This document shows, one piece after another, positions 2,575 through 45,091 of a DNA stretch of 47,707 nt. The notes under the pieces are model-generated. The model had not been told where the DNA came from. It saw only the letters and a list, made by a program, of their open reading frames with translations, and ran no database searches. The position numbers and the translations under genes are program-made. The DNA comes from an uncultured Bacteroidota bacterium (GTDB lineage: Bacteria; Bacteroidota; Bacteroidia; AKYH767-A; JABDAW01). Location: assembly GCA_903911135.1 (NCBI GenBank), contig CAIWCG010000178.1:1-47707 (forward strand), given 5' to 3'. The number at the start of each line of letters is the position of its first letter. Positions within the stretch are counted from its first letter, which is position 1.

Positions 2575-2780
2575 GCTAAAACCAGTTCCATACATGGGAT
2601 TAACCTTTTTAAGCTAAATAAGCCCATTCCCATACATGCGATTGGCCTTTTTAAACCAAAAAACACCAAACCCATACATGGGATTGACCTTTTTAAACTC
2701 CAAAATACCAAACTCATACATGGGATTGACCTTTTTAAACCCCAAAATACCAAACCCATACATGCGATTGGCATTTTTAA
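2575..2780. repeat. Tandem repeat, 42-bp period, 5 copies
   Basis: CATACATG recurs at 2589, 2631, 2673, 2715, 2757, each followed by (G/C)GATT..C(C/A)TTTTTAA. Confidence 0.95.
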
Positions 2781-2884
2781 GGTTTTTATAGTTTTGATGC
2801 AGGAGGGGAGGGCTTCAACTCAAATTTAAATCGTTGCACTGCACCCCAAACGGATTCTCTGCAACGTTTTCTTGTGATATAATA

Positions 2885-2919
2885 TAAAAAGCCAGATACA
2901 TAATTACTGTATCTGGCTT
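2885..2919 (-). terminator. Intrinsic terminator after tRNA-Pro
   Basis: AAGCCAGATACA-7 nt-TGTATCTGGCTT stem, followed by a T-run on the minus strand. Confidence 0.85.
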
Positions 2920-2928
2920 GATTTTCAG

Positions 2929-3002
2929 TCGGGGTGGCGAGATTTGAACTCACGACCCCTTGCACCCCATGCAAGTACGCTACCAGGCTGCGCTACACCC
3001 CG
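2929..3002 (-). tRNA. tRNA-Pro(GGG)
   Basis: Reverse complement CGGGGTGTAGCGCAGCCTGGTAGCGTACTTGCATGGGGTGCAAGGGGTCGTGAGTTCAAATCTCGCCACCCCGA; cloverleaf with anticodon stem CTTGC/GCAAG, anticodon GGG and T-loop GTTCAAATC; CCA not encoded. Confidence 0.97.
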
Positions 3003-3076
3003 AATTTCTGGTCATCAAACAAAATAAAGAACCGATTTTAACTACTTTTATGAGTTGGAACAATACCAAAACGCTG

Positions 3077-3114
3077 CAAAAGTAAAATAAATACTTTTAA
3101 ATTCAATAAATTTG
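3077..3114. promoter_or_regulatory. Divergent Bacteroidota -7 promoter boxes (tRNA-Pro and TonB receptor)
   Basis: TACTTTTG on minus (3077-3084) and TAAATTTG on plus (3107-3114) match TAnnTTTG. Confidence 0.7.
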
Positions 3115-3167
3115 CAGTCTTCACTGAAACAAATTCATGCGAAACAAAACATACCCAATACCTAATT

Positions 3168-5540: not shown

Positions 5541-5541
5541 C

Positions 5542-6453: not shown

Positions 6454-6644
6454 ATCAATACCAATCTTCATCAAGATTTGGATGATTCATTCATGATGGC
6501 TCGCAAAAGGCGAAGCTATTATTAATGATTCATCAATGATTTAGAACAATCGTTTAATCCTTTCAATTTATAAATTGCTGATTTCTTGTCAAATAAATGA
6601 TAATTAATCTGCTCTTTTTCATTTGCAATGACTTTAAAGCACCA

Positions 6645-6960
6645 CGTCGCGTCGTTGGGACCCAATGCCGCTTCGTTAGGTCCTTACGCCGTTTCGTTGG
6701 GTCCTTACGCCGTTTCGTTGGGTCCTTACGCCGTTTCGTTGGGTCCTTACGCCGCTTCGTTGGGTCCTTACGCCGCTTCGTTAGGTCCCTACGCCGCTTC
6801 GTTGGGTCCTTACGCCGCTTCGTTGGGTCCTTACGCCGTTTCGTTGGGTCCTTACGCCGCTTCGTTGGGTCCCAAGGTCGTGTCGTTGGGTCCCAAGGTC
6901 GTGTAATTGGGTCCCAAGGTCGTGTCGTTGGGTTCCAAGGTCTCGACCTTGGGTCCCAAC
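6645..6960. repeat. Tandem repeat, 21-bp period, 15 copies
   Basis: Unit TCGTTGGGTCCTTACGCCG(C/T)T in register from 6652 to 6946; the right-hand units switch to TCGTTGGGTCCCAAGGTCGTG. Confidence 0.97.
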
Positions 6961-7075: not shown

Positions 7076-7210
7076 TTCGAGGCGGCTGCCATCAATCATA
7101 GCCCCGATAGAAGCGGCAGCCCGCTGCTTTCGTCAGGAAATGGGGGTGCAGCGGCTACAGCGGATAGCGGGACGAAGATGATACGAGAACTGCACATAGG
7201 CTTCAAAAAA
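7076..7210 (+). repeat. Dispersed structured repeat copy 1 (Flavo-1 RNA motif-like)
   Basis: Core TAGCCCCGATAGAAGCGGCAGCCCGCTGC...GCAGCGGCTACAGCGGATAGCGGGAC; five more copies in the window. The Flavo-1 name is recalled resemblance only. Confidence 0.9.
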
Positions 7211-9604: not shown

Positions 9605-9890
9605 TTTGTCTGTTCTTGAAGCATCGTTGGGTGTTTTTGGGTAGATAGAGTCTGTTGTTGGGACATGAGGTTCTGTTTTTGGCATATCTTGGGATGTACT
9701 TAAGACAATAGGTGTTGTTGCTGCAACTTGATGCTCTGTTCTTGAGAAATGTGTGGGTGTTCATACAAAATCAAGCTCTGTTCTTGGGAGATGATGGGCT
9801 GTTGTTGGGAAATGAGTGTCTGTTGCCGAAATAGGGTGGTCTGTTGTGGAAATGATGGTGTGTTCTGATAATGAGGGGCTGTTCTGAAAA
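9605..9890. repeat. Degenerate tandem repeat, 21-bp period, about 12 copies
   Basis: TGTT (once TGTA) at 9611, 9632, 9653, 9674, 9695, 9716, 9737, 9758, 9779, 9800, 9821, 9842; then two 19-bp steps. Confidence 0.85.
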
Positions 9891-10016: not shown

Positions 10017-10046
10017 GGTTGATTTATATGGGGAAGGCGAATAATT
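10017..10046 (+). repeat. 30-bp direct repeat, copy 1
   Basis: GGTTGATTTATATGGGGAAGGCGAATAATT, 29/30 identical to 13350-13379. Confidence 0.9.
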
Positions 10047-10164
10047 ACCTATTGGATCGGGTGGGGTGAATTAGGGTTTTTATGGTAGATTTGCGGCTTG
10101 AAAAAAGTATTATGGAAATAACAGACAAAAAAATGAGAGGTATAAATTATGAATATATTTAACT

Positions 10165-11115
10165 ATGGAAAACGATGAAATTTTAAAAGAGCTTAAACTT
10201 AAAACATGCAGCAAAAATCTACGATTACCAGATGGCATAATATTTTCAATATTTGGCAATGTTTTAAAAGTTGATTTAAAAAATGTTAGTGGAAATATGC
10301 AAGTAGATAAATATGCTTTTGAAGGTTGGATAGTTTGTCTAAAACTTTGGTTTCCTGAAATTGACAAAGTAGAAATAAATTGGAAGCATATAAAAGAAAA
10401 CAACCTACATTATAATAGATTTTTATTTAGAGTTTTACAATTCAAAAAAATGTACTCATGGTTTTCATTCTCTGAAGAAAAAAATCAAGCGATTGCCGAT
10501 TTTAAGAAAGGATTAGAAGGGACACTTTTAATGAACTATCCTGAAAAAGATAAAGTACATAAAATTAAAGGAGATGAGGATAAAATAGAGATGCTGTTTG
10601 CGAATAAATACGAAGCTCTTTTAAAGGAAAGATTACAGTTAAACTTCTTAAATCAACAACTTCCTGTTGGTGTTTTTGAAGAATTTGAAGAAGAAAAAAA
10701 GAAAAGAAGATTGTTTACTGGTGGTAAAAGTGCTATTGATTTATGGGGGATCAAAAATAATGAACTTTGCATATTTGAACTCAAATATCATAATAAGAAG
10801 CCAGGAAAGGTAGGAATAATATCCGAATTACTTTTTTACTTATCTCTAATGAATGAGGTTTTTATTACTGAAGGGATTACATACCCAAAAATTGATGATA
10901 AAGATGATAAAGTTTGGTTTAGGGGTTTTGATAAATTATATGGTAAAAAGTTTACAAGTATTAAAGGGTATTTTTTGATAGATAAATTACACCCCCTTAT
11001 TGACCAAAAAGTGGTTGACATGATAAATTTAGGTCTAAAAGAAATTGGCAGCATTTCTGTTCACATACTTAAATATAAGTACGATACTGAACTTGATAAA
11101 ATTGAACTATTATGA
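10165..11115 (+). CDS. Hypothetical protein, probable PD-(D/E)XK nuclease fold
   Basis: 316 aa; IDLWG...IFELK fits the D...ExK catalytic pattern; AT-rich; TAGATTTG -7 box at 10086-10093. Confidence 0.6.
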   Translation: MENDEILKELKLKTCSKNLRLPDGIIFSIFGNVLKVDLKNVSGNMQVDKYAFEGWIVCLKLWFPEIDKVEINWKHIKENNLHYNRFLFRVLQFKKMYSWFSFSEEKNQAIADFKKGLEGTLLMNYPEKDKVHKIKGDEDKIEMLFANKYEALLKERLQLNFLNQQLPVGVFEEFEEEKKKRRLFTGGKSAIDLWGIKNNELCIFELKYHNKKPGKVGIISELLFYLSLMNEVFITEGITYPKIDDKDDKVWFRGFDKLYGKKFTSIKGYFLIDKLHPLIDQKVVDMINLGLKEIGSISVHILKYKYDTELDKIELL

Positions 11116-12374
11116 AAATAATTGTTCATAGAGGCACTCGACAAATTGGAGGTTCGTGCATAGAGATTTGTACAGATCAAGCACGAATTATCTTTGATAT
11201 TGGAGAAGAATTGCCTGACAAATATCAAAAGGAAAGGGAGAAGAAATTATTGGTTGTTGATGATTTATTTGTCAATTCTAAAACTACGGACAGAAAAATT
11301 GATGGCATCATTATTTCACATAATCACGGCGACCATATTGGGTTAATTGATTCGACCAAAGAAGGCATACCTCTTTTTATAGGGAAAATATCTGCCGATG
11401 TGCATAATATTATTTGTGATTTCACAAGTAAAGGAAATAAAATAAAAGCACACAAATATATCGAACATGAAAAGCCATTCAAGATTAAAGATATTGTAAT
11501 TACTCCTTATTTGGTTGATCATTCTGCTTATGATTCGTATGCTTTTATGATAGAGAGTAATGGCAAAAAAATACTTTATACCGGAGACTTCCGAAAGCAT
11601 GGTGCAAAAGGTAAATTGAGTGAATGGTTTTATAAGAATCCAAAAACACATAATGCTGATGTTTTAATAATTGAAGGTACAAACTTGTATAAAGAGAACT
11701 ATGTTGCAGAAACCGAAAACCAAATTGGTGCAAGAGCATTGGAGTTTATGAAAAAAACAGCGGGCAATGTTTTTGTCCTTCAATCATCGGCAAATATTGA
11801 CCGTTTGGTTCAAATGTATATAGCTGCTAAACACTCCAATAGATTGTTTCTTGTAGATATTTTTACAGCAAATATCTTAGCTCAATTACCTGATAATATT
11901 CCTAACCCAAAAACATTTAAGGATGTCAAAGTATTTTATCCTTATTGGCTAACACAAAGGATGTTTAAAGAAGAAAACAAAAGTCATTTGGCTTATAAAT
12001 TCAGTCAATATAAATTGGATAATGAAGAACTGAATCAACGAACAGACTTATGTGTTTTGGTTCGAGAAAACATGTTGAGCGATATTCAAAAAAAGATGAA
12101 TTATTCAAAATCGGGAGTTATTTATTCAAAATGGGAAGGGTATAAAACTGACAAGAAAGTAGAAACATTCCTGGATTTTTTCAGGAAAAATAATTCTGAA
12201 ATAGAAAGCATCCATACCAGTGGTCACGCTGATACTGATACCATCAAGAATTTTGTTAAATATTCTAACCCTAAAAAGATTATTCCTGTTCATACCGAAA
12301 CCCCAGAAATATATTCTAAACTCTTTGGTGATATTGTTGGTAACATTAAGGATGGAATTGAATATATTGTTTGA
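11112..12374 (+). CDS. MBL-fold beta-CASP metallohydrolase (RNase J-like nuclease)
   Basis: IGGSC, SHNHGDH (HxHxDH), VDHS, YTGDFR, HTSGHA, PVHTE; ATGA overlap with the upstream gene. Confidence 0.88.
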   Translation: MKIIVHRGTRQIGGSCIEICTDQARIIFDIGEELPDKYQKEREKKLLVVDDLFVNSKTTDRKIDGIIISHNHGDHIGLIDSTKEGIPLFIGKISADVHNIICDFTSKGNKIKAHKYIEHEKPFKIKDIVITPYLVDHSAYDSYAFMIESNGKKILYTGDFRKHGAKGKLSEWFYKNPKTHNADVLIIEGTNLYKENYVAETENQIGARALEFMKKTAGNVFVLQSSANIDRLVQMYIAAKHSNRLFLVDIFTANILAQLPDNIPNPKTFKDVKVFYPYWLTQRMFKEENKSHLAYKFSQYKLDNEELNQRTDLCVLVRENMLSDIQKKMNYSKSGVIYSKWEGYKTDKKVETFLDFFRKNNSEIESIHTSGHADTDTIKNFVKYSNPKKIIPVHTETPEIYSKLFGDIVGNIKDGIEYIV

Positions 12375-12410
12375 TGTAATTTCCAACTTGAACCAAAACA
12401 TTCAAGAACT

Positions 12411-12995
12411 TTGCAGCAAATCAAAATAAACCTATTCGGTATTGGATGCAGGGTTATCAAAGGGGAATTTGAAGAGGGGATTTGGAAACGGTTTCACGCC
12501 ACTGCAAGGGCAATAAAAACCCCATTGGATGAGGCTATATTCGAAACCTCGTTTTATGAATCGCTAAAAATGGAGGAGTATAAATCTTTGTCTGATTTAG
12601 GAAATGTGTTTCAATATAACGGGTTGATGAATGATGCTAAAAGCCTTATTGAAATACGGATTAACAATAGAAAAAAGCGAAACATCCGTACCAATGAACT
12701 GTTTAACGAATCGGTATTGTTTCCGGTATTTCGAACGACTGTTTGCAAGGTTGAAAACTCGCCTCTTCTCCCAAATTCCTTATTGGCTGTTGAAAAGGAA
12801 ATGGGAACCATTACGAGTTATAAATTCGAGACGGGAAATTTTTCATTGGATAAACTATCCTTTGCCATTACGATTTTGAATATCAATAAACCGGGGGACT
12901 GTGTTTTATTAACCAAGATAGAATATGATGGAATGGTGCTAACGGCAACACCATCGGATACTTTGGTTACGGAGAGGTATTGCTATTTAGATTGA
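12411..12995 (+). CDS. Hypothetical protein
   Basis: 194-aa ORF with TTG start, co-oriented with the upstream pair; no motif recognised. Confidence 0.65.
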   Translation: MQQIKINLFGIGCRVIKGEFEEGIWKRFHATARAIKTPLDEAIFETSFYESLKMEEYKSLSDLGNVFQYNGLMNDAKSLIEIRINNRKKRNIRTNELFNESVLFPVFRTTVCKVENSPLLPNSLLAVEKEMGTITSYKFETGNFSLDKLSFAITILNINKPGDCVLLTKIEYDGMVLTATPSDTLVTERYCYLD

Positions 12996-12998
12996 AAT

Positions 12999-13123
12999 AA
13001 TATTTGATCCCTCTGGGGTCTGGGATTGTTGGGGATGTTTATTGCTACCAATATTTGACCCCGATAGGGTTTAGGAAGTGTATGGTGGAAAAGATTGCTA
13101 CAAACAGAACACTCTGATGGGGA
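12999..13123. repeat. Cluster of three REP-like short palindromic units (~50-bp spacing)
   Basis: AATATTTGATCCCTCTGGGGTC (12999), ATTGCTACCAATATTTGACCCCGATAGGGTT (13041), ATTGCTACAAACAGAACACTCTGATGGGGA (13094); CTAC is GTAG on the minus strand. Confidence 0.6.
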
Positions 13124-13135
13124 TTTGTTTTAATA

Positions 13136-13163
13136 CCTTTCAGGATTGAGAAAACCTGAAAGG
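13136..13163. other. Hairpin next to the REP-like cluster
   Basis: CCTTTCAGG-10 nt-CCTGAAAGG. Confidence 0.5.
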
Positions 13164-13349
13164 ATGGGTGGGTTGATTTGTCTATTTTGCTCTTAATGGT
13201 GAAAGGAAATGGGTGGAAAATGATTTTTGTGGCGGGGTGGCAAGAAAATAAATGGCTGCTGGAATATTGTTGCGAGCGTAGGGACGAGGGGCTTTATATC
13301 TCTGGAAGGGCTTGGTAGCATAGGATGGGGGAAGAATTGTGGCTGTATG

Positions 13350-13379
13350 GGTTGATTTATATGGGCAAGGCGAATAATT
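13350..13379 (+). repeat. 30-bp direct repeat, copy 2
   Basis: GGTTGATTTATATGGGCAAGGCGAATAATT. Confidence 0.9.
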
Positions 13380-13484: not shown

Positions 13485-14480
13485 ATGACTACGGCACATT
13501 CGAATTATTTAAGGATGATCATCACTGCAAGGGGTGTGATGGATTATGGCGACAATCCAGCTATTTGGGATGGCAACACTTGGGTGGTGGTGGCGAAATC
13601 GGATGTTCAGACAATATTGGACCGGATACTTGCGAATGAAGGCATTACGGAAGAGGATTTGCATGGGAACACGGAAAACAAGGAGACTTTGTGGATGGAT
13701 GCGGCAAAATTGGGCGTGCACATGAACATAGGGACGAAGGTTTGGGCAGAAAACAAAACAGTTCCTGACCCTGTTTTGGCGGCGGAGATGCATTACACCA
13801 TTTCGGATTTGGACAGGGGAGCGATTCAGGATGTGTTGGTGAAATTGAATTTCATCAAGGGTAAGGTGGGTCTTATTCCTGTTTTGGATTTGCCCCATGT
13901 GAACATCACGGCGTTGGATATTTCGACCTTTAACGATAAAATCGATTCATTGACTCTTGCGGCTCCTCAATTCAGGATAAAGCAGGTGGTGAAAAGTGCG
14001 GCAGTGAGTGACATCAATGCTGATTTTAAATTGCTTCGGGAGGCGAAAGGCAAGCAGGATAGGCTGGTTCATATCTATAAATTGACGCGTGGGACTTTTG
14101 TTAAGGCTTACGATAACGGGAGTAAAATCATTGACTTGGGCAAGGGGGCGACAACGGAGGAGGCGGTGCTGCACCCGAGGGAGCATGTGGCTTGGTTTTT
14201 CAAGAAGTTTTTGCCTGGGGATACGCTGACTTTCAGGAATCATAGTGTATTGGCGAAGGTGAAGGTTTTTTTGAACGACACGACTGATGTGCCTGCAACT
14301 GGTGGGATAGAAATAGGGACTGAAACAGATTTGAAATTGGCTATTCCTACTGATTTTAATGGTGTATTCGGCCATTATATCATTGTGGTGAGTTTGAGCG
14401 ATATGGATGATGCTCATGTGACGGGGATATTGGCGAAGGGGAAGAGTGCGAGTGAGGCTGCCAGTCCGCAATTGATTTAG
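13485..14480 (+). CDS. Hypothetical protein
   Basis: 331-aa ORF; helical-looking N-terminal half and beta-rich C-terminal part; no signal peptide. Confidence 0.8.
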   Translation: MTTAHSNYLRMIITARGVMDYGDNPAIWDGNTWVVVAKSDVQTILDRILANEGITEEDLHGNTENKETLWMDAAKLGVHMNIGTKVWAENKTVPDPVLAAEMHYTISDLDRGAIQDVLVKLNFIKGKVGLIPVLDLPHVNITALDISTFNDKIDSLTLAAPQFRIKQVVKSAAVSDINADFKLLREAKGKQDRLVHIYKLTRGTFVKAYDNGSKIIDLGKGATTEEAVLHPREHVAWFFKKFLPGDTLTFRNHSVLAKVKVFLNDTTDVPATGGIEIGTETDLKLAIPTDFNGVFGHYIIVVSLSDMDDAHVTGILAKGKSASEAASPQLI

Positions 14481-18837: not shown

Positions 18838-19260
18838 ATGGCAGATATCTTCGACAAGGAAACACGGAGCTATGTGATGTCTCGCATACGCAGCAAAGAT
18901 ACCAAACCCGAACTCCTGGTTCGAAAGTATTTTTTCTCTCAAGGCTTTAGGTATAGATTGCATGAAAAGAAGTTGCCCGGCACACCTGATATCACTTTAC
19001 CCAAGTACCATACCGTGATTTTTGTGCATGGATGTTTCTGGCATGGCCACAAGAACTGTAAATATGCCTGCATTCCAAAAACCAGAACGGAGTTTTGGAT
19101 GAATAAAATTGCGCGCAATAAAATGAATGACCGAACGAACATCAAACTTCTCAAATCTCTTGGTTGGCAGGTGCTGGTGATTCATGAATGCCAACTAAAG
19201 AAAGATAAAATCAACAGGTCATTGAAAAAAATAGTAGAGAAGATCAATCAAAGACTTTAA
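18838..19260 (+). CDS. vsr: Very short patch repair endonuclease Vsr
   Basis: RS.VMSRIRSKDTKPE, LPGTPD, FVHGCFWHGH. Confidence 0.93.
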   Translation: MADIFDKETRSYVMSRIRSKDTKPELLVRKYFFSQGFRYRLHEKKLPGTPDITLPKYHTVIFVHGCFWHGHKNCKYACIPKTRTEFWMNKIARNKMNDRTNIKLLKSLGWQVLVIHECQLKKDKINRSLKKIVEKINQRL

Positions 19261-28425: not shown

Positions 28426-28500
28426 ATAAAACCAGCTGCGAAGGATATGAAATCATTCGCCTACTCAATTGGATTTAAATTCTAATCAGTACCATTCCAC

Positions 28501-28552
28501 AACCTTCTTTTATTATCCTATGTTTGCATAGCTGAAAAGGGAGTAGGCATTT
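28501..28552 (+). promoter_or_regulatory. Shared promoter/leader, copy 1
   Basis: AACCTTCTTTTATTATCCTATGTTTGCATAGCTGAAAAGGGAGTAGGCATTT with TAnnTTTG box. Confidence 0.85.
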
Positions 28553-28580
28553 TACGATTATAAAAATAAACAAATAGAAT

Positions 28581-29186
28581 ATGCCTAAATGTATTGAATG
28601 CAGCAACATGACAACTTATGAAAATTGGCTTTGTTATTCTTGCTATCAAAAGAAACAAAAAAGTCATGTTTACACAGATAATCATCCTAGTGGGCTAAGT
28701 TACAATGATTGGATATTTCATTATAACATGATTAAAGGAAGGATTGCGGAAACTTTGATTCAGGAATTATTCCTACAACTGAAATTTAATGTGTATCGTT
28801 ATGGCATGGAAAATACCATTCCAGGAATAATGGAACTGCTTAGACATGATAATTCTTCTGTTGCAAGTTCCATTAGAAGCATGCCTGATTTTGTGATTCA
28901 AAATTCAACATCAAAAGAGATACGACTTTTAGAAGTGAAGTTTCGAGCAAATGGCTCTTTCAAAATCAATGAGTTGATAAAAAACTATCCTTGGGAGGAT
29001 GCGTATATAATCTTAGTTTCGAAGGTGAGCATCAAATGCATTACCTATAAGGAACTGAAAGAAGGAGGCGAGATAACTGCAACATCTGACAATCATCTTT
29101 ATGACCGCATTGAATTCAGTAACGATAAAGCGGTAATAATTGAATTTTGCAACTTTGCTACGAGATTCTTTGCTTGTGTAAATTAA
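28581..29186 (+). CDS. N-terminal Zn-finger plus PD-(D/E)XK nuclease-like protein
   Basis: CIEC...CYSC; KGRIAE; PDFVI...LLEVKFR. Confidence 0.7.
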   Translation: MPKCIECSNMTTYENWLCYSCYQKKQKSHVYTDNHPSGLSYNDWIFHYNMIKGRIAETLIQELFLQLKFNVYRYGMENTIPGIMELLRHDNSSVASSIRSMPDFVIQNSTSKEIRLLEVKFRANGSFKINELIKNYPWEDAYIILVSKVSIKCITYKELKEGGEITATSDNHLYDRIEFSNDKAVIIEFCNFATRFFACVN

Positions 29187-29261
29187 CACTGAACCTTTAT
29201 AGATTTTGCCTATGGATTATGGATTAAAATTTCTTGAGCCTTTGAAAAGTGAGCATTCATT

Positions 29262-29313
29262 AACCTTCTTTTATTATCCTATGTTTGCATAGCTGAAAAT
29301 GAAGTAGGCATTT
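29262..29313 (+). promoter_or_regulatory. Shared promoter/leader, copy 2
   Basis: AACCTTCTTTTATTATCCTATGTTTGCATAGCTGAAAATGAAGTAGGCATTT, 50/52 identical to copy 1. Confidence 0.85.
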
Positions 29314-29327
29314 ATATATAGAATGAA

Positions 29328-30596
29328 ATGAAAAAATTTAAAAGCGAAGAAGCAATAAGAAAAGCAATAGAGAAAAATCCTATGGATGCTGAATTATATT
29401 TTCAGCTTGGGGTATGGATATTTGAGAACGGCAAAGCACTGGACATAAATTATAGGCATAGAGCCATGGATGAATTCGATAAGGCCAAAGCCATCAATCC
29501 ACAAGAGGGGAAGTATCATTTTCATTATGGGCTATGTTCGATTGATATGGGAAACCCGGAAGCTACCACGAATGCGAGTTTCAATAAGGCCATCCATCTT
29601 GGATATAAGGTGGAGGAATGCAAGAGGCTGATGGCGGAAGCAAAAACAAAATATGATGCGGAGTATAAAAAGGCGCATGAGGACTATTTGGATAGGCTGG
29701 AAAAGGAAGTTGACGGCGCACATAAATTTGGTCAACTGGGTTCTCATTATTACTGGAAAGATAAAAAGAAGGCGATTGCTTTATTGGAGAGGGCCTTGGA
29801 ATTTGATCCTAATGATGGCAACGCAAATGTTTTGTTGGGCAGATATTATGGCGAACAGGGGGATATGGAAAAAGCATTGGAACATTTCAAAAGGGCGGGG
29901 GCTGATTCTCTTAAATATGGTTCTGGCTATCGTGATAACCACTATGATGAAATGGCCAGCATTTATGAGAAGAAGGAGGATTGGGAAAATGCCTTGATAT
30001 GGCGAAAGAAGGGGTATGAATTGTATCCTGATGAAATTTGGAATGCGCAGCAATATGGCATTCATTTATATAAATTTGAAAAGCAGGAAGAGGCTTTGGC
30101 TGTTTTCATGAAAATTCTTGAGATGAATCCTGAAGGCAGCAATACGTTTGTTTATACCCATCTTGCCTCGTACCACTCGAACAAAGGAGACATAGAAACC
30201 ACTTTGAAATACCTGCATGAGGGTTTGAAGTACAATGCTCAAAATTGGTTCTTTCATTTTAATCTGGGGCATATCCATGAATATACGAAGCAATATGATT
30301 TGGCAGAAAAGTTTTTTCTGAATGCTGTAGTTTATCGGTTGGATGATGATGCAGCCTATATTCGACTTGGGAAAATGAATTTGAGGGAAGATTATTTTGA
30401 CATAAAGAAAAGCAGGGATTATTTTGTGAAAGCTTTGGAAATAAATTCTTTAAATATAATTGCACATGAAAAGTTGAGTGAGATCTATATGGAACTAAAT
30501 GAACCAACAAAAGCCAAATATCATCAATCGAAAACGCAAGAGCTGCGAATTCAGGAATTATACCCTAACCCCAACAGCAAGGATTTTCTTGCCTAA
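29328..30596 (+). CDS. Tetratricopeptide repeat protein
   Basis: Repeated LG..Y...G...KA...F.RA and ALE.DP/NP patterns; no signal peptide. Confidence 0.88.
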   Translation: MKKFKSEEAIRKAIEKNPMDAELYFQLGVWIFENGKALDINYRHRAMDEFDKAKAINPQEGKYHFHYGLCSIDMGNPEATTNASFNKAIHLGYKVEECKRLMAEAKTKYDAEYKKAHEDYLDRLEKEVDGAHKFGQLGSHYYWKDKKKAIALLERALEFDPNDGNANVLLGRYYGEQGDMEKALEHFKRAGADSLKYGSGYRDNHYDEMASIYEKKEDWENALIWRKKGYELYPDEIWNAQQYGIHLYKFEKQEEALAVFMKILEMNPEGSNTFVYTHLASYHSNKGDIETTLKYLHEGLKYNAQNWFFHFNLGHIHEYTKQYDLAEKFFLNAVVYRLDDDAAYIRLGKMNLREDYFDIKKSRDYFVKALEINSLNIIAHEKLSEIYMELNEPTKAKYHQSKTQELRIQELYPNPNSKDFLA

Positions 30597-30624
30597 TATG
30601 GCGAACACGCCACCATTCTCCACA

Positions 30625-30663
30625 TATCCTATCTTTGCATAGCTGAAAAGGGGGTAGGCGTTT
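30625..30663 (+). promoter_or_regulatory. Shared promoter/leader, copy 3
   Basis: TATCCTATCTTTGCATAGCTGAAAAGGGGGTAGGCGTTT, 36/39 identical to the matching part of copy 1. Confidence 0.8.
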
Positions 30664-30693
30664 GGGGATAAAAAGAAACAAATAATTTAGATT

Positions 30694-32463
30694 ATGGCTA
30701 AAAGATATACCATTGATGACATGCAGGAGTATGCCAAAGATAAGGGGGGACTGTGCATGAGCAAGGAATACGTCGATTCGATCTCTCCCTTGAAATGGCG
30801 ATGTGAAAAGGGCCATACCTGGGATGCCGACTTTGAAATCATCAGGCAGGGTGGGTGGTGCCCGCAGTGCTTGAAGAAAGAACACGACATTATCGAACGA
30901 TTTGAGAAGATAAAAGCCATTGCCATTGCAAAAGGAGGAAAATGTCTATCCACGGAATTCATTAACATGAAGGAAAAATTGGATTTTGAATGTGCTGAAG
31001 GGCATAGATGGAGTGTTGCCCCAGGTGGAATATTAAATAATAATCAATGGTGCAGCAAATGTGCATATAAAAAATTGGGGATGAATTCAAGGGACCCAAT
31101 TGAGATGTTTCAAAAAATAGCAGCCGATCATGGAGGGAAATTACTATCTCTAACCTATTCAGGAAGTAGAGATAAATTGCTTTGGGAATGCAAGGAAGGT
31201 CATCAATGGTATGCCAATGCATTTTGTATAAAGAGAATTAAAACATGGTGTCCTGAATGTTCAGGAAAACTCCCTCTAACTATTGAGGATATGAAAAATG
31301 ATGCTGCCAAGCATGGAGGTGAATGCCTTTCAACCGAGTATCTTGGTGTTAGCAAACAATTGAAATGGAAATGCTCGGAAGGGCATGTTTGGATGGCAAA
31401 ACCAAATAATATCCGTTCAGGTAACTGGTGCGACATTTGTGCACATAAAAGAATTGGAGACTTTCATAGAGACAATATAGAGACCTTTCATGAAATTGCG
31501 AAAAAACGGGGAGGAAAATGCCTATCAACAACGTATGTTAGGAATCTATACAAATTGGAATTTGAATGCTCGGAAGGTCATAGATGGAAAGCAGCACCCA
31601 TTGGAATAAAAAACATGAATAACTGGTGCCCAAAATGTGCTCGCGTTTCTTGTGGCATAAAAAACAGGGAAGATATAGCCATATATCATAAAATTGCCAA
31701 AGAACGTGGAGGGCGATGCTTGGAATTTACTTATAAAGGAAACCGTGTAATTATCAAACTTGAATGTGCGGAAGGACATAGTTGGACTATAGAAGGTCAT
31801 GCAATCAAACAAGGGAACTGGTGTTTCAAGTGTGCCCATAAACGAATTGCTGCAAAACAATTTGACACCATCGAAACATTTCATGCCATAGCAAAGGAAA
31901 ATGGGGGTAAAGTTCTGTCGAAGGAATATGTCAGTAGTCTTACAAAAATGGAATTTCAATGTTCAGAGGGACATGTTTTTTGGGCTTCGGCATCCAACAT
32001 TAAAAATAATCGTCTTTGGTGTATCATTTGCAATAAAATAAAGAGGGATAAACCAAAGAATAAAATTGAAAGATTCAAACAATTGGCGATTGAAAAAGGT
32101 GGCAAGTGTTTATCGGAGGTATGTTATAATACCCATGATAAACTGGATTGGGAATGTGCAGAAGGGCATAGATGGACAGTATCAGGGAAAGGCATAGTAT
32201 GCGGAAACTGGTGCAAGAAATGTGCTAGTAAATCAAATGCCATGAAACAATTTGACACCATCGAAAATATTCAGGAAATAGCGAAGAAGCATGGAGGAAA
32301 ATGCTTGTCGGAAGTTTATGTAAACAACACAACAAAGATGAAGTTTCAATGTTCGGAAGGGCATATTTGGATGTCTACTGCAGGCAATATTAAAAACCAT
32401 CCTACTTGGTGTGTTGTATGCAATAAGAATAACAAGAAAAAATCATTAAAACCAAAGATTTGA
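30694..32463 (+). CDS. Protein of nine tandem zinc-ribbon repeats
   Basis: Nine ~64-aa units GGKCLS..Y......L.W/F.C..GH.W......I....WC..C; no other domain. Confidence 0.85.
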   Translation: MAKRYTIDDMQEYAKDKGGLCMSKEYVDSISPLKWRCEKGHTWDADFEIIRQGGWCPQCLKKEHDIIERFEKIKAIAIAKGGKCLSTEFINMKEKLDFECAEGHRWSVAPGGILNNNQWCSKCAYKKLGMNSRDPIEMFQKIAADHGGKLLSLTYSGSRDKLLWECKEGHQWYANAFCIKRIKTWCPECSGKLPLTIEDMKNDAAKHGGECLSTEYLGVSKQLKWKCSEGHVWMAKPNNIRSGNWCDICAHKRIGDFHRDNIETFHEIAKKRGGKCLSTTYVRNLYKLEFECSEGHRWKAAPIGIKNMNNWCPKCARVSCGIKNREDIAIYHKIAKERGGRCLEFTYKGNRVIIKLECAEGHSWTIEGHAIKQGNWCFKCAHKRIAAKQFDTIETFHAIAKENGGKVLSKEYVSSLTKMEFQCSEGHVFWASASNIKNNRLWCIICNKIKRDKPKNKIERFKQLAIEKGGKCLSEVCYNTHDKLDWECAEGHRWTVSGKGIVCGNWCKKCASKSNAMKQFDTIENIQEIAKKHGGKCLSEVYVNNTTKMKFQCSEGHIWMSTAGNIKNHPTWCVVCNKNNKKKSLKPKI

Positions 32464-35924: not shown

Positions 35925-36225
35925 CAAAATCTGTTTCAACACACTTTGACTCCGTTGTGACACATTTTGGTTCTGTTCGAACAAACTCCGGTTTCGTTCG
36001 AACAAACTCCAGGTTTGTTGCCAACGAAACCAAGTTTCAAGGGAAGAAACGGCATTTTGTTCTCCTGAAAACCATTTTCGTTCGAACGAAACCCAACCTT
36101 GTTCGAACGAAACCAAAATGTGTCGCGACATACTTTGACGTTTCGAAGCTACATTTTGAGTTCGTTTGAACAGAAATCGCTTTCGTTCGAACGGAATCCG
36201 TTTGCGTTCGAACAGAGTTGAACTT
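35925..36225. repeat. Degenerate tandem repeat, 21-bp period, about 14 units
   Basis: Palindrome GTTCGAAC at 35975, 35996, 36080, 36101, 36185, 36206; variants in register at 35933, 35954, 36017, 36059, 36122, 36164. Confidence 0.88.
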
Positions 36226-36457: not shown

Positions 36458-38380
36458 ATGAAATTATTTAGCGAATTGGGAGTAGGAGACGAATTGATTC
36501 AAGCCATTACCGAGTTAGGCTTCGAAGCACCTACACCAATACAACAACAGGCAATCCCTGAATTGTTGAAACTGGGCAGTCGAGACTTGATTGGCTTGGC
36601 ACAAACGGGAACAGGGAAGACGGCCGCTTTTGGGTTACCTTTACTTCAAACATTGGACTTCAACGGCTCCAAGACGCAAGCCTTGATATTGGCGCCTACA
36701 CGAGAATTATGCATGCAGATAACCAACGATTTGGTGTCGTATTCCAAATACATGGCGAATGTGAGGATAGTGGCCGTATATGGCGGAGCAAGCATTCAGA
36801 CGCAGATATCACAGATAAAGAGAGGAGTGCAGATAGTGGTGGCCACACCTGGCCGATTGCTGGATTTGATTGAAAGAAGGGCGATAGACATCACCAAGGT
36901 GGAATATCTGGTGCTCGATGAAGCGGATGAGATGCTGAACATGGGTTTCAGGGAGGATATCGATTCCATTTTGTCTAATACTCCTGATGATAAGAAGGTG
37001 TGGTTGTTTTCGGCCACGATGCCAAGAGAGGTTCGTGAGATTGCATCGAACTACATGACCGATCCCTTCGAATTGACCGTTGGCAAGAAAAACACCGGAG
37101 CCGAAAACATAGAGCATATATATTATGTGGTTCATGCACGGGACAAATACCGAGCCTTGAAACGCATCGTGGATTTCAATCCTGATATCTTCGGAATAGT
37201 TTTTTGCAGGACAAAAATAGAATCGCAGGAAGTGGCCGAGAATCTTATCAAGGATGGTTATAATGCCGATGCATTGCACGGAGATTTGAGCCAGCAGCAA
37301 CGCGATAAGGTGATGAAACGTTTCAGAGACAAGTCCTTGCAGTTGATGATAGCCACCGATGTTGCAGCTCGAGGCATCGATGTTGATGATATCACGCATG
37401 TCATCAATTATGATTTGCCTGATGAACTGGAAAGTTATACCCACCGAAGCGGACGAACTGCCCGTGCAGGCAAGTCGGGAGTTTCTTTGGCCATTATAAA
37501 CATGAAGGAAACCGGAAAGATTCGTCATATAGAGAAACAGATAAACAAAAAGTTCATCGTAGGCAGAATACCTGATGGGGTAGAGGTTTGCGAAAAACAA
37601 TTGTTCAATTTGGTAAACAAGGTGAAGGCCGTAGAAGTGAATGAAAAGGAAATAGAGAAGTATCTGCCAACCATCATGGAAGAATTGAAGGACATCGACA
37701 GGGAAGAACTCATCAAACGATTTGCTTCCATCGAGTTCAACCGGTTCTTGGAATATTACCGTAATGCTCCTGACATCAATATAGACAGCAGCAAGCGTTC
37801 GAACAGCGATGGAGCGGATGGATTCAGAAAAGGTTCGACTATTTTCCTAAGTCTTGGAGCAATGGATGGTTTCGACAAGGGAGCCATGTTGAAATATTTC
37901 TGCAGCATAACTGGAATGAAGGGAAGTGATGTGGGAAGAATAGAAGTGAAAGGTGTCTATTCCTTTATTGATGTAGAACCAGGCAATGAAAATACCATCA
38001 TGGAAGCATTCAATGGGGAAGTTTATAAAGGCAGGAAGGTTCGTGCAGACATATCAGGAAGCACCGGTGGTGGTGGAGGCGGTGGCGGGAGAAGCCGTGG
38101 CAAAAAGAGTTATGGCGGTGGAAGAAATGATTATGGTGGCGGCGGTGGTGGTGGTTATAGTTCTGGTGGTGGTGGTTTCCATCGCAAGGAAAATACCAGA
38201 AGTTATAAATCCGACAAGCCAAGTTATGGTTCAGACAAACCAAGTTATGGTTCAGACAAGCCGAGCTATGGCAAATCCGACAAGCCTAGTTATGGCAAGA
38301 AGGATTCTTCGCCAAAGCCTACCTATAAGAAAGCCGATGGAGGTGGAAAGAAGCGCAAGAAAAAGGAAAACGAATGGTAA
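36458..38380 (+). CDS. deaD: DEAD-box RNA helicase (DeaD/CsdA-like, with DbpA-type RNA-binding domain)
   Basis: AQTGTGKT, PTREL, TPGR, DEAD, SAT, ARGID, HRSGRTAR; Gly/Lys-rich tail; TACCTTTG box at 36422-36429. Confidence 0.9.
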   Translation: MKLFSELGVGDELIQAITELGFEAPTPIQQQAIPELLKLGSRDLIGLAQTGTGKTAAFGLPLLQTLDFNGSKTQALILAPTRELCMQITNDLVSYSKYMANVRIVAVYGGASIQTQISQIKRGVQIVVATPGRLLDLIERRAIDITKVEYLVLDEADEMLNMGFREDIDSILSNTPDDKKVWLFSATMPREVREIASNYMTDPFELTVGKKNTGAENIEHIYYVVHARDKYRALKRIVDFNPDIFGIVFCRTKIESQEVAENLIKDGYNADALHGDLSQQQRDKVMKRFRDKSLQLMIATDVAARGIDVDDITHVINYDLPDELESYTHRSGRTARAGKSGVSLAIINMKETGKIRHIEKQINKKFIVGRIPDGVEVCEKQLFNLVNKVKAVEVNEKEIEKYLPTIMEELKDIDREELIKRFASIEFNRFLEYYRNAPDINIDSSKRSNSDGADGFRKGSTIFLSLGAMDGFDKGAMLKYFCSITGMKGSDVGRIEVKGVYSFIDVEPGNENTIMEAFNGEVYKGRKVRADISGSTGGGGGGGGRSRGKKSYGGGRNDYGGGGGGGYSSGGGGFHRKENTRSYKSDKPSYGSDKPSYGSDKPSYGKSDKPSYGKKDSSPKPTYKKADGGGKKRKKKENEW

Positions 38381-38383
38381 AAG

Positions 38384-41061: not shown

Positions 41062-41249
41062 TTTGGAAAATGACTTTCCAAGGTGGGAAAATGATTTTCC
41101 AAGGTGGGAAAATGACTTTCCAAGGTGGGAAAATGACTTTCCAAGGTGGGAAAACGATTTTCCAAGGTGGGAAAATGACTTTCCAAGGTGGGAAAATGAC
41201 TTTCCAAGGTGGGAAAACGACTTTCCCAGTAGGAAAAACGACTTTCCAA
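41062..41249. repeat. Tandem repeat, 21-bp period, 9 copies
   Basis: Unit GGAAAATGACTTTCCAAGGTG from 41065 in steps of 21. Confidence 0.97.
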
Positions 41250-41345: not shown

Positions 41346-41482
41346 TTCGAAGCAAGCTGCCGTCAAAGCATAGCCCCGATAGTAGCGGCAGCCCGCTGCT
41401 TTGTGTCGGCAATGGGAAGGCAGCGGCTACAGCGGATAGCGGGACGCAGATGGGACGAGAAGCTGCCATAGGCTTCAAAAAA
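41346..41482 (+). repeat. Dispersed structured repeat copy 3
   Basis: TTCGAAGCAAGCTGCCGTCAAAGCATAGCCCCGATAGTAGCGGCAGCCCGCTGC...GCGGATAGCGGGAC...CATAGGCTTCAAAAAA. Confidence 0.92.
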
Positions 41483-41501: not shown

Positions 41502-41531
41502 AAAGAGCCAGCGGATTAATGCTGGCTCTTT
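41502..41531 (-). terminator. Intrinsic terminator of the Omp28 operon
   Basis: AAAGAGCCAGC-8 nt-GCTGGCTCTTT. Confidence 0.85.
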
Positions 41532-41549
41532 GTATAATGATGTTTGTGT

Positions 41550-42428: not shown

Positions 42429-42455
42429 TTGAGTGTTTTATTTAATGTAATAAGT

Positions 42456-44129
42456 TTAGAAACTGCTGGTTATGGAAAGCGTGATGCCATTGGATGCGGG
42501 TACTTGGCGGCATAATCCTCCTACACAGAATATCCCTGCCCTTTGTTTGCCATATCCTATCGCAAAGCGATTGGCATTTTTGGTGAATCCGGCTGAAAGG
42601 TTGGGATAATGAAGTTGGTAGTTCTTGTCGGGATTGCCATAATTGTAAAGATCCAATGCGGCCACATACAAATGAGGAGCGATGGTATATTCTATCAGGC
42701 CCATAGCCCAGTTCTTTTGGTCTTGCATGGTAGAGAGGTGTTGCATTTCGGTGCGGATGGTCTTTTTGTCCGTCACCTTGAAGAACATTTCGAGAACTGC
42801 AACTTGAGCATTGACGGTGCCATCGCCTGGCGCCACGGTGATGTCTCTATTGCAGATGATGTTCATGTAGGTGGCCACAAACTTGAAGGTCTTGCTCACC
42901 TTTTTGGTAACTTCCATATTGATGTCATGGAAATAAACCTCTTTACCTATTTTGAAGAAATTGGATGTGTAGCCTTTGGTGTTTTCTTTACCTACTGCGG
43001 TGCTGCTGTTGATTTGCTGACGGTCGATGGATTGAGTTTGAGAATAATTTACGTCTATGTTGGTTCCATATTTTCCACCGAGGAAGGTATTTGGTTTGAA
43101 AATATAGAACAATTCTGCCTGAACGCCCATCTCGCCATTAGCTTGAGAGGCATAAGGATAAAAGGCAGCCAAGGCATAGGTATGTTGTTTTGCAAGCACA
43201 GGCAAGAAGTTGATCATCTGGTCTATTTGTTTGGCATTTCTGTCTGCTCGAAAATCCATGTTGTCGACTCTTTCTGCAGATAAAGTGATGCCGAAACCTT
43301 TCTTGCTATAGTTCGCATTGACCAACAGTGCCTGACCATCCTTATAGATATATCCATTGCTGGCAGAAGGGTCATTGATTTTGTAGGCGTACTCACCGGA
43401 TAGGTTAAGGTTGCCTCGGATGATGTTCAATCTTCCTGCCGATGCACCGACATTTACAGGCAATACATGAAAGGGATCGTTGGAGGTTTGGTATTTGCTT
43501 ACGAAACTTCCGCCGATGATGATTTTGGTTTTGTGTTCTGCCCAAGAGCTGATGGCTTCATTCAGGTTCACCTCGCCATCAAAGCCACGGACAAGACCCG
43601 GGATAGTATAGATGGCATTGAAATAAAGTCTTTCCTTGCCAATGATTCCTTTGAAATAAACACCGTTGACAGGAGAATATTTTATTCGCAAGCCTTCCAT
43701 GGCGTTGTCATATCCAAGACCTCTTTCTTCATAAGTTCTATAGATGAGTCCACTGCCGAATTGCTCATAAAAGTTTCCTGCCGTCACTTCCAGTCCTTCG
43801 TTCTTGTAAGTGATGAATCGGTATGGTATGCCGCTGTTGTTGCTATAGCCTTGAGGAAATCCCAACAAGGAATTCATGTAGGTTTCATAGCGGAAACCGG
43901 CAGAGAAGTTATCATTGGCATAGATAAAATTTGCAAACCCGGCACCGAGCATTTTTTCATTCGGAACGGAATCGGCATAATATTTTGAGGCGGGCATGTA
44001 ATATTGTCCATTGGCTTCGAAGTTTCCATGAATGGAGCCACCACCAAGAGTTTGGGCCATGCTGCCAAGGGTGGATATTGCAATAGCCACTGCTAATGCA
44101 AAGGAGCGTTTAATGTTTTTTGTTTTCAA
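42456..44129 (-). CDS. DUF6029 family outer-membrane beta-barrel protein
   Basis: Signal peptide; GNFYEQFGSG...YEER.LG.DN; YGKQRAGIFCVGGLCR; terminal F. Confidence 0.82.
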   Translation of the reverse strand: MKTKNIKRSFALAVAIAISTLGSMAQTLGGGSIHGNFEANGQYYMPASKYYADSVPNEKMLGAGFANFIYANDNFSAGFRYETYMNSLLGFPQGYSNNSGIPYRFITYKNEGLEVTAGNFYEQFGSGLIYRTYEERGLGYDNAMEGLRIKYSPVNGVYFKGIIGKERLYFNAIYTIPGLVRGFDGEVNLNEAISSWAEHKTKIIIGGSFVSKYQTSNDPFHVLPVNVGASAGRLNIIRGNLNLSGEYAYKINDPSASNGYIYKDGQALLVNANYSKKGFGITLSAERVDNMDFRADRNAKQIDQMINFLPVLAKQHTYALAAFYPYASQANGEMGVQAELFYIFKPNTFLGGKYGTNIDVNYSQTQSIDRQQINSSTAVGKENTKGYTSNFFKIGKEVYFHDINMEVTKKVSKTFKFVATYMNIICNRDITVAPGDGTVNAQVAVLEMFFKVTDKKTIRTEMQHLSTMQDQKNWAMGLIEYTIAPHLYVAALDLYNYGNPDKNYQLHYPNLSAGFTKNANRFAIGYGKQRAGIFCVGGLCRQVPASNGITLSITSSF

Positions 44130-44150
44130 AATGATTGCTGTTTTATTGGT

Positions 44151-44690
44151 TTATTTACTTTCTGGCAATGGCTTTCCGGCAGCTACGGCCTTGATCATTT
44201 CATACAGTTCCTTTTCGTTGCCTTCAGCAAAGCCGACATGTTGCCAAACGATTTCGCCGTTGCCGTTTATCAGGAAGGCATGCGGAGGATTGTTTACATT
44301 CATGGCGCGTTTGAAATCGCCGTTCGGGTCGCCATAAATTTCATAAGTCCAGCCTTTGCCATTGACAAAAGTGCCAACGCGGGCAGATGTTTTGGCGTCG
44401 TCTATGGAGATGGCTATCACCTTTACGCCGGTTTCCTTTTGCCAGTCTATGTAGTTTTCGGAGATGGCGTTCAGCTCCTCTATGCAGGGCTTGCACCAGG
44501 TGGCCCAAAACGAAATTACCATCGGTTTGCCATTGTTCGAAAACGTGGACGTGTTCACTTTTCCGCCATCGAGACCTTTCAAATCTACGGATGGAATCTT
44601 TCTTGATTTCGCATTATCCTGTGCCGATACATTCGAAAACAGCATTGAAAACAACAGTGCAGCCACTGCCAGCATTAGTTTCTTTGTCAT
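44151..44690 (-). CDS. TlpA family thiol:disulfide reductase
   Basis: Signal peptide; SFWATWCKPCIEEL. Confidence 0.92.
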   Translation of the reverse strand: MTKKLMLAVAALLFSMLFSNVSAQDNAKSRKIPSVDLKGLDGGKVNTSTFSNNGKPMVISFWATWCKPCIEELNAISENYIDWQKETGVKVIAISIDDAKTSARVGTFVNGKGWTYEIYGDPNGDFKRAMNVNNPPHAFLINGNGEIVWQHVGFAEGNEKELYEMIKAVAAGKPLPESK

Positions 44691-44780
44691 GACTTTTAAG
44701 TTTATTTTTATTGATTATGGTGGCAAAAATAATAAAAATGCTTTAACAAATGGATGAAAATACAAAATGGCAAATATTTC

Positions 44781-44939
44781 TAATTCCAATAAGGAGCCTA
44801 TGTTCGCTTCTCGTCCCATCTACGTCCCGCTATCCGCTGTAGCCGCTGCTCCCCATTTCCGACACCAAGCAGCGGGCTGCCGCTACTATCGGGGCTAGAT
44901 TTGACGGCAGGTTGCTCGAATGAACTTTTGGCAGAAATG
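44781..44939 (-). repeat. Dispersed structured repeat copy 4 (left arm of inverted pair)
   Basis: Reverse complement of 45109-45269 with scattered differences. Confidence 0.92.
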
Positions 44940-44990
44940 CCGCTCTCAAGCAAGAATTCGTTCAAATGGTTTATAAAACTACCTATTTCC

Positions 44991-45091
44991 GGTTTCCGAC
45001 CGATAGGACGGAGGTTGCGGATGATAAGACGGAGGTTGCGGATGATAGGACGGAGGTTGCGGACGATAGGACGGACGATGCGGACGATAGG
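44991..45091. repeat. Tandem repeat, 21-bp period, about 4.8 copies
   Basis: Unit (C/T)GATAGGACGGAGGTTGCGGA at 45001, 45022, 45043, 45064; partial at 45085. Confidence 0.95.

Follow-up and report, generated by a model that had tools for sequence, protein, structure and literature searches.

Six tandem arrays in the window

The window, meaning the whole 47,707-nt stretch of DNA analysed here, contains six intergenic tandem arrays, all of which are detected by Tandem Repeats Finder (TRF). Array 1 (2588–2780) is built from a 42-bp unit and has five related solo arrays at other sites in the genome. Array 2 (6644–6959; 15 × 21 bp) has a copy of the Flavo-1 repeat to its right. Arrays 3 (9605–9890; 21 bp, with TRF calling part of the span) and 4 (35925–36216; TRF period 21, with a GTTCGAAC core) are decayed. 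Array 5 (41065–41249; 9 × 21 bp) lies between convergent genes, and array 6 (45001–45091; 4.3 × 21 bp) is flanked by two inverted Flavo-1 copies. None is assigned to a strand. Best-lag identities for arrays 1–6 are 0.79 (at lag 42), 0.89, 0.54, 0.56, 0.90 and 0.86, compared with maxima of 0.35–0.42 in 300 base shuffles per array; identity at lag 7 is 0.15–0.29. A sliding scan of the window revealed no seventh intergenic array, and the sole other periodic signal (38065–38317) falls within a DEAD-box gene.

An earlier note had described these arrays as unrelated in sequence, alike in a 21-bp register and often palindromic at the core. The units are indeed unrelated, with best 21-mer matches among arrays 2–6 of 9–11 out of 21, the level of random pairs. 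The common register holds for arrays 2–6 and is not clear within array 1, whose unit is 42 bp and whose four best lags do not include 21. Palindromic cores occur in only part of the units: of the 15 units in array 2 just four contain TTGGGTCCCAA, and six of the 14 in array 4 contain GTTCGAAC. Related-strain contigs from other freshwater metagenomes extend to these arrays too, which are therefore not assembly artefacts. Most of these contigs break at the arrays, and none shows an empty allele. In congeners, the gene order around most array sites differs.

All six arrays are gene-less (solo) copies, and some have gene-linked relatives. The family of array 5 includes a member 52 bp upstream of a helical-bundle protein gene elsewhere in this genome (C214:16694–17356), and in the congeners G001 and G002 homologues of array 4 precede a gene of the helical+FN3 type. 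Array 3 is similar to the array that precedes, in G002, the homologue of a window gene, P0002 (13485–14480, + strand). This resemblance suggests that array 3 once belonged to P0002 and was probably displaced from it. The three-gene block that now separates the two is enclosed by 30-bp direct repeats, 29/30 identical, at 10017–10046 (+) and 13350–13379 (+), the right copy lying in the P0002 leader. P0002 encodes a 331-residue protein with a long helical bundle (residues 1–213) followed by a jelly-roll domain (220–320). It has no match in Pfam, NCBIfam or PHROGs, the ESM Atlas names no family for it and a related-locus search with P0002 as query returned no match.

Genome-wide array population

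The period of the window arrays dominates the entire genome (G000). A genome-wide TRF run placed 651 of 848 merged loci at a period of 21n; these loci make up 3.4% of the genome DNA, and 605 of the 651 lie outside long ORFs. The earlier suggestion that the fixed period is not due to chance is upheld. The 568 robust arrays fall into 372 sequence families, the largest with nine members, and their density is ~150 per Mb. Because they fill so much of the genome and are found at 86 contig ends, the arrays fragment short-read assemblies.

Autocorrelation within the robust arrays peaks at 21, 42, 63, 84, 105 and 126 only, and higher-order units of 42, 63 and 84 bp are common. Values at lags 7 and 14 (0.26 and 0.25) are background, which rules out an origin from heptamers of the STRR (TAACTGA) type. 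Array length is narrowly distributed (median 193 bp, quartiles 144–239). Dyad symmetry is in excess, with 11.69 matches of 21 versus 10.5 expected (SD of shuffle means 0.08). AA/TT dinucleotides lack 10.5-bp phasing, which argues against A-tract bending. Neither trinucleotide bias nor the family consensuses reveal a motif common to all units, the arrays show no strand skew and variation within them has no 3-nt periodicity (power 0.086 versus 0.1 for a flat spectrum). As the earlier note had held, the arrays are not CRISPR loci: units run head to tail without unique spacers, and no cas1 match is found in this 98% complete genome. Nor are they simple remnants of heptad-coding genes. An array is present in 87 of 395 convergent gaps, ruling out a general role as promoter-upstream elements.

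Array-linked genes encode helical-bundle proteins

In G000, ~127 divergent genes (hereafter cassette genes) encode cytoplasmic helical-bundle proteins whose C-terminal domain is of FN3, jelly-roll or CarboxypepD-like type. Most are adjoined by an array on a side that is fixed for each family: fam6 genes have the array upstream in 18 of 21 cases and downstream in 0 of 21, and fam7 genes upstream in 0 of 10 and downstream in 9 of 10. These families were initially chosen for proximity to arrays, so counts within G000 are partly circular. In 11 gene pairs, amino-acid identity is 0.64–0.89 and four-fold-site identity 0.47–0.78; the cassette genes are under purifying selection. Fold searches with the cassette proteins gave generic helical-bundle, jelly-roll and FN3 matches alone (best Z 9.5), and their predicted models matched no known DNA-binding, nuclease or catalytic fold. 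The proteins are not basic, with a median pI of 6.4.

Only 96 of the 568 arrays are linked to a gene, and 21 of these 96 are downstream of it. In fam2, terminator-like hairpins separate the gene from its downstream array. In 13 of 68 cases the stretch from array to gene contains a TAnnTTTG box, which we take to be a promoter motif, and a palindromic TATATA motif, matching on the gene's strand, is found on the far side of nine upstream arrays. Two paralogues whose proteins are 86% identical carry their array in opposite orientations. Proteins that are 74–81% identical frequently adjoin unrelated arrays, so a strict lock between protein and array sequence is unsupported.

The gene link extends across Bacteroidia

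An independent test used homologues in other genomes chosen by protein profile alone. For P0002-type genes, an array was scored where the best lag was 21, 42 or 63 at an identity of at least 0.55. Among the matches listed, best first and up to 30 per genome search, an array precedes the gene at 26 of 50 loci and follows it at 2 of 49, leaving 24 of 50 with no detected upstream array; these counts exclude G000's own loci and L055, L023 and L149 (gene at contig start). For helical+FN3 genes, 21 of 26 listed loci have an array (16 upstream, 6 downstream, one of them both), excluding G000's own loci and two weak matches in long proteins (L201 and L202). Genes for DUF6261 (PF19775), a family of all-helical Bacteroidota proteins of ~250 residues, have a 41/42-bp array upstream in 6 of 12 listed cases and downstream in 0 of 11. 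Array periods of 41 and 43 bp exist. DUF6261 itself has no match in G000. Comparison of the three gene types (P0002, FN3 and DUF6261) by hhalign gives probabilities of 1–3% between their helical domains. Of 17 P0002-positive genomes among the matches listed, 14 also encode the FN3 type, 8 of the 14 coming from two genera.

The arrays are therefore tied to genes for helical-bundle proteins across Bacteroidia. Background array density does not account for this link, because random chunks of carrier genomes outside this genus hold 0–38 arrays per Mb, compared with 118–200 per Mb in G001 and G002. We found no literature on an array–gene link; Bacteroidota examples or gene neighbours may be given in the supplementary material of PMC8161180, PMC6749651 and PMC2864571.

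Solo arrays and their flanks

Exactly one member is gene-linked in 50 of 113 multi-member array families (35.5 ± 4.6 expected, P = 0.0015). Only 4 of 103 linked–solo pairs share sequence that extends into the gene, ruling out solo arrays as relics of whole-cassette duplication, and the likeness between related gene-less arrays mostly ends near the array edge. Array turnover is fast. A comparison of C32 and C75 is suggestive of in-place array swapping between conserved flanks; drift is enough to explain the change, however, since four-fold sites there are just 51% identical.

Flavo-1 (RF01705) is an accessory at array flanks and not the array itself. In the window, a motif at 7096–7178 (+) forms the core of a ~145-bp repeat and points away from array 2, another at 41368–41450 (+) points away from array 5, and copies at 44819–44900 (−) and 45150–45231 (+) bracket array 6 on its left and right. 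Six window copies pass the Rfam gathering score (45–56.6 bits; cut-off 42). The genome has 348 Flavo-1-type copies; of the 184 near arrays, 180 face outward, 29 arrays are bracketed on both sides, and a second element shows the same polarity in 49 of 49 cases. This strict outward polarity is absent from the Flavo-1 table row of Weinberg et al. (2010, PMC2864571) and from the passage in PMC9723704. The commonest flank is missing from 424 of 568 arrays (341 of 480 solo and 83 of 88 gene-linked).

Relationship to known repeat systems

The arrays belong to the constant-length, variable-sequence tandem repeats of bacteria, in the 20–23-nt class (PMC8161180). Subirana and Messeguer (2021, PMC8161180) describe a 20–21-nt class that is non-coding, comprises many species-specific, unrelated families and has no known function, and they remark that 20–23 nt corresponds to two helical turns. 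The G000 arrays share the single dominant length, the many unrelated families and the non-coding location. They differ in density (~150 per Mb here versus a Bacillus average of 22.8 per genome), in their 42/63/84-bp higher orders and in the gene link; the text of PMC8161180 on these repeats names no linked gene family. A short motif shared by most repeats of a species also marks the class, and none common to all units is apparent here.

BrickBuilt and MITE-PgRS/464 of Porphyromonas gingivalis, in 10–20 copies, are likewise intergenic tandem repeats (23 and 41 nt) of a member of the Bacteroidota and have repeated modules at their flanks (Klein et al. 2015, PMC4596501). As described there, each element has one unit sequence and IS5-type terminal inverted repeats, whereas G000 has hundreds of units, no common ends and a linked gene. 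The absence of the commonest flank from most arrays also speaks against a BrickBuilt-type shared leader, tail and terminal inverted repeats.

Plasmid iterons and the parC/tubC centromere repeats are phased short direct repeats beside the gene for their binder, and their specificity diverges among paralogues. The P0002, FN3 and DUF6261 loci likewise place phased repeats beside the gene for a candidate binder. Here, however, the system is chromosomal with more than 100 paralogues, binding is predicted, and no Rep, ATPase or ribbon-helix-helix/winged-helix adaptor fold is among the matches listed for the cassette proteins. Type III toxin–antitoxin systems (ToxIN, CptIN, TenpIN) also have a tandem repeat array adjoining a single gene. 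Their layout is upstream, on a fixed strand and co-transcribed; the arrays described here have a shorter, dyad-rich unit and are sometimes downstream (21 of 96) or, in one case, inverted, and the cassette proteins scanned have no Pfam or NCBIfam match to a ToxN/CptN/TenpN endoribonuclease.

Models for array function

Phased protein binding, one of two mechanisms put forward in the earlier note, now has a concrete candidate in the adjacent helical-bundle genes. The dyad excess, the inverted array, the 41-bp periods, the hairpins before downstream arrays and the TAnnTTTG boxes favour action at the level of DNA. The reading we prefer, plausible though short of probable, is that the arrays are phased double-stranded DNA sites for the adjacent helical-bundle proteins, whose binding is predicted. 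A two-part cassette would then comprise a non-coding array of about ten 21-bp or five 41–42-bp units and the protein gene. The proteins would bind side by side along the array, one dimer per two helical turns, and binding would remove unit lengths other than ~21n yet leave the sequence free to drift. Its first function may be control or tethering of the locus of the cassette. In this genus, gene-free copies of arrays would have come to occupy most of the long intergenic gaps, and Flavo-1 and further small repeats would later have settled at the array edges. The predicted models without a known DNA-binding fold, the pI of 6.4, the low share of linked arrays and the 24 array-less P0002-type loci count against this binding model, as do the unrelated arrays beside similar proteins, the low hhalign probabilities among the three gene types and the lack of A-tract phasing. 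A bolder version, in which each of more than 100 paralogous helical-bundle proteins per genome polymerises on a private 21-bp-phased array and its dispersed copies, as a widespread undescribed two-part system, is a doubtful possibility.

It is unlikely, though worth weighing, that the 21-bp phasing is read by a common host factor (nucleoid protein or transcription activator) instead of by the protein encoded alongside. The arrays would then be upstream activating or copy-number tuning elements of a diversifying repertoire, possibly immune-like, with a helical effector and a variable sensor domain. Subirana and Messeguer proposed a polymerising protein (PMC8161180), unrelated arrays adjoin near-identical proteins, and arrays are common to three gene types that lack demonstrable homology and co-occur across genomes. 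This explanation offers no candidate factor and does not account for arrays beside one protein architecture outside this genus, or for family-fixed downstream arrays beyond terminators.

A variable repeat adjoining a conserved protein is the layout of type III toxin–antitoxin and repeat-guided systems, and an array transcript could accordingly act on the protein encoded beside it as a guide, antitoxin or decoy. The sense-strand bias of open frames in upstream arrays, the TATATA palindromes beyond nine of them and the transcription of Bacillus 52-nt repeats (PMC8161180) fit such a role. We consider it distinctly unlikely given the array inversion between close paralogues, the fam2 arrays downstream of terminator-like hairpins, the lack of strand skew and the absence of a nuclease fold from the fold searches.

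That an enzyme (a reverse transcriptase, primase-polymerase, HUH transposase or cassette protein) measures 21 nt and builds or copies arrays is improbable, and the templated or enzymatic repeat synthesis raised in the earlier note found no support. Arrays are copied without genes, with edges frequently near the array boundary, their length is narrow and higher-order units are common, all of which an enzyme could explain. However, the search for RT and HUH genes yielded one RT, not beside a cassette, which from reading the sequences we take to be retron-like and adjacent to a vWA-like gene, and one broken Y1_Tnp. The cassette proteins show no catalytic fold, and near-saturated neutral divergence suffices for the changed units.

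Since 21 bp is seven codons, arrays encoding heptad-repeat peptides that pair with the helical bundle were also considered, and are very improbable. A stop-free frame on the gene's strand is present in 44 of 48 upstream arrays, where 39.2 ± 1.9 would be expected (P = 0.006 in one test out of six). Of 65 arrays, 47 are spanned by an ATG-started frame in the sense direction and 33 in the antisense direction, as are 151 of 364 solo arrays on one strand. Against this stand the flat 3-nt spectrum, translation-start contexts that are weak (median −1.6, compared with 2.6 in real genes), the lack of common peptide chemistry or of any bias in downstream arrays, the 41- and 43-bp periods and the inverted array. 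That arrays are cargo of a composite MITE with Flavo-1 ends, like the 23-nt repeat within BrickBuilt, is hardly credible despite the abundance, outward polarity and bracketing of the flanking elements, as most solo and nearly all gene-linked arrays lack the flank, the window's Flavo-1 copy has no match in 60 kb of the array-richer G001, the genome has no intact Y1 transposase and the period is left unexplained.

Implications

The cause of uniform length combined with arbitrary sequence in the tandem repeats of many bacteria is a standing question. The repeat class itself is already in print, a point that the earlier note missed along with the gene link, and its authors could only guess at a binding protein (PMC8161180). 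The array–gene link names candidates, among them DUF6261 and short proteins with an FN3 domain. Should every protein read an array of its own, these genomes would hold a large natural library of orthogonal protein–DNA pairs, built on a fold for which DNA binding is not known. Such private reading would amount to a programmable DNA-address or chromosome-bridging code, or to a selfish element spreading its own binding array, and would supply the missing cause of constant-length bacterial satellites.

Arrays in the window and across the source genome

The source genome is a 3.8-Mb, Bacteroidota-type genome with T9SS and TonB genes, and its sequence is also contained in freshwater metagenomes. All six tandem arrays described in the earlier note are present in the window, flanked by ordinary genes: array 1 (2588..2780), array 2 (6644..6959), array 3 (9605..9890), array 4 (35925..36216), array 5 (41065..41249) and array 6 (45001..45091). 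Their best-lag identities are 0.54–0.90, compared with shuffle maxima of 0.35–0.42, and comparison of the units bears out that their sequences are unrelated. Array 1 is a true 42-mer with no clear 21-bp half-repeat. The palindromic cores are real, but in arrays 2 and 4 only some units carry them.

The periodicity extends throughout the genome. Among 941 arrays detected by TRF, the period is 21 in 371, 42 in 199, 63 in 89 and 84 in 31; 651 of 848 merged loci have a 21n period, and autocorrelation peaks fall at multiples of 21 only. The 21n loci have a median length of 193 bp, cover 127.9 kb (3.4% of the genome) and lie outside long ORFs in 605 of 651 cases. Intergenic gaps of at least 400 bp hold an array in 330 of 479 cases, versus 3 of 1688 gaps shorter than 200 bp, and array-bearing gaps occur in all gene orientations. 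The 568 robust arrays form 372 sequence families, the largest with nine members.

Other parts of the window were also noted. Beyond a Vsr-like gene, 825 bp of strongly G-skewed intergenic DNA (19260–20085) gave no 21/42 signal in a sliding scan; this stretch is perhaps a fully decayed array. A low-GC block (24887–32463) with NUDIX, PLD-helicase-DUF3427 restriction-like, TPR and zinc-finger genes is array-free. A dispersed repeat at 12996–13127 also occurs in two congeners, G001 and G002, at several sites that are not orthologous.

Association of arrays with helical-bundle genes

Genes adjoining the arrays cluster into many small families of 200–390-aa proteins that have no Pfam match and mostly lack a hydrophobic N-terminus. 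We refer to an array with such a gene as a cassette. The source genome contains 127 cassette genes on 100 contigs, rarely neighbours of one another; the side on which the array lies is constant within each gene family, at a distance of mostly 40–330 bp. Because these families were chosen for their nearness to arrays, the link was tested in other genomes by protein profile. The profile of P0002, a cassette protein of the window (13485–14480, + strand), has matches in 11 of 41 relatives and, more widely in the class, in 18 of 151 genomes; at these loci a 21/42/63 array lies upstream in 26 of 50 cases and downstream in 2 of 49. The profile made from the shorter, FN3-type proteins has matches in 21 of 151 genomes, and 21 of the 26 loci have an array. 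For DUF6261 (PF19775), which was not found in the source genome, the detector placed a 41/42-bp array upstream of the gene in 6 of 12 cases, and inspection by eye adds two. Periods of 22/44 (L195, genome G153), 20/61 (L208, G042) and 43 (L075, G003) also occur in cassettes, which shows slight variation of the step among lineages.

In the predicted structure of P0002 (pLDDT 91.5), a jelly-roll domain comes after a long helical bundle; that of the FN3-type protein (pLDDT 76) has a shorter bundle and an FN3 domain. In other cassette families the C-terminal domain is CarboxypepD-like, and DUF6261 consists of helices alone. Structure searches with these models found no specific relative, and comparison of the three helical domains did not demonstrate homology. 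Paralogue pairs share 64–89% amino-acid identity at a four-fold-site identity of 47–78%, so the genes are under purifying selection.

Solo arrays and their relation to cassettes

Only 96 of the 568 arrays are gene-linked. Multi-member array families with exactly one linked array number 50, against 35.5 expected (P = 0.0015), a count that depends on an incomplete gene inventory. Of 103 linked–solo pairs, 40 stay alike for at least 30 bp beyond the far edge of the array and 30 do so beyond the edge nearer the gene; in 4 the likeness enters the gene. Arrays diverge much faster than the proteins. In the window, array 5 belongs to the same family as an array 52 bp before a gene at C214:16694, homologues of array 4 precede an FN3-type gene in both congeners, and all relatives of arrays 1, 2 and 6 in the source genome are solo.

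Array 3 is similar to the array that precedes P0002's homologue in G002. Between array 3 and P0002 lies a block of three genes (10017–13379), flanked by two 30-bp direct repeats and encoding a 316-aa protein with no family match above cut-off, a beta-CASP metallo-hydrolase and a 194-aa protein of unknown function. The block looks like an inserted module that split a cassette, and is possibly defence-related. Elsewhere, two paralogous cassettes with differing arrays share a 202-bp, 85% conserved element (C32:109–310 and C75:6195–6396), bounded by TATATA motifs and found at these two places only; it is a candidate structured RNA or DNA site.

Repeats flanking the arrays

A repeat of ~145 bp with a Flavo-1 core (RF01705) has 348 copies in the source genome. 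Within 400 bp of an array lie 184 copies, 180 of them pointing outward; among the remaining copies, 128 face a contig end. Array 6 is one of 29 arrays with a copy on either side, and just 5 of 88 gene-linked arrays adjoin one. A search of 60 kb of G001, where arrays are denser, found no match to the window's copy, so we read the repeat as a later settler. A second element, a GC-rich 160-bp hairpin repeat (77 copies, e.g. C233:420–579), has the same polarity, pointing away from the array in every one of 49 cases.

Flavo-1 copies have short heptamer tracts at their outer ends (window 45265–45288); in the congeners, inverted pairs of such tracts lie between gene and array (L035, L036). A near-perfect palindrome, CATAC(C)TATATATATAGTATG, is present at ~40 intergenic sites (e.g. 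C30:26407, C58:6362), often 50–110 bp from an array and, where the array is gene-linked, usually on the side away from the gene.

Possible mode of action

Several features point to the arrays acting as double-stranded DNA: unit dyad symmetry exceeds that of shuffles, one array is inverted between two paralogues 86% identical in protein, periods of 41–43 bp occur, downstream arrays sit beyond terminator-like hairpins, and no codon periodicity was found. No A-tract phasing was found in the units. The simplest candidate binder is the neighbouring protein, which may well sit on the array once per two helical turns. A shared host factor binding the arrays is less probable, and an RNA partner slightly less so again. 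The repeat-synthesising enzyme proposed in the earlier note is improbable and finds no support in a genome with a single reverse transcriptase, a broken Y1_Tnp and no cas1. That reverse transcriptase (L212, contig C187; 371 aa) appears to be of the retron or defence kind, and its gene is followed by a vWA-like one. Open frames on the gene's strand of upstream arrays exceed expectation, which runs against a DNA-only view; their start contexts are poor, and we consider translation into heptad peptides very unlikely. Least likely of all is carriage of the arrays as MITE cargo. BrickBuilt and PgRS (PMC4596501) are single-sequence MITEs, unlike these arrays.

Distribution and relation to known repeats

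With one dominant repeat length, many unrelated sequence families of that length and a mostly non-coding position, the arrays fit the 20–21-nt constant-length class described in PMC8161180; trinucleotide bias and family consensuses gave no sign of a short motif common to the units. We found no paper on the array–gene link in the literature searched. Array density is 200/Mb in G001 (60 kb sampled) and 118/Mb in G002 (17 kb sampled); in 28 other genomes, with 7–80 kb sampled from each, it is 0–50/Mb, and the arrays detected in genomes without a cassette match differ in best period or comprise just two copies. Since arrays are rare in random DNA outside the genus, we infer that what is widespread is the cassette, and that the abundance of solo arrays reflects an expansion at the level of the genus.
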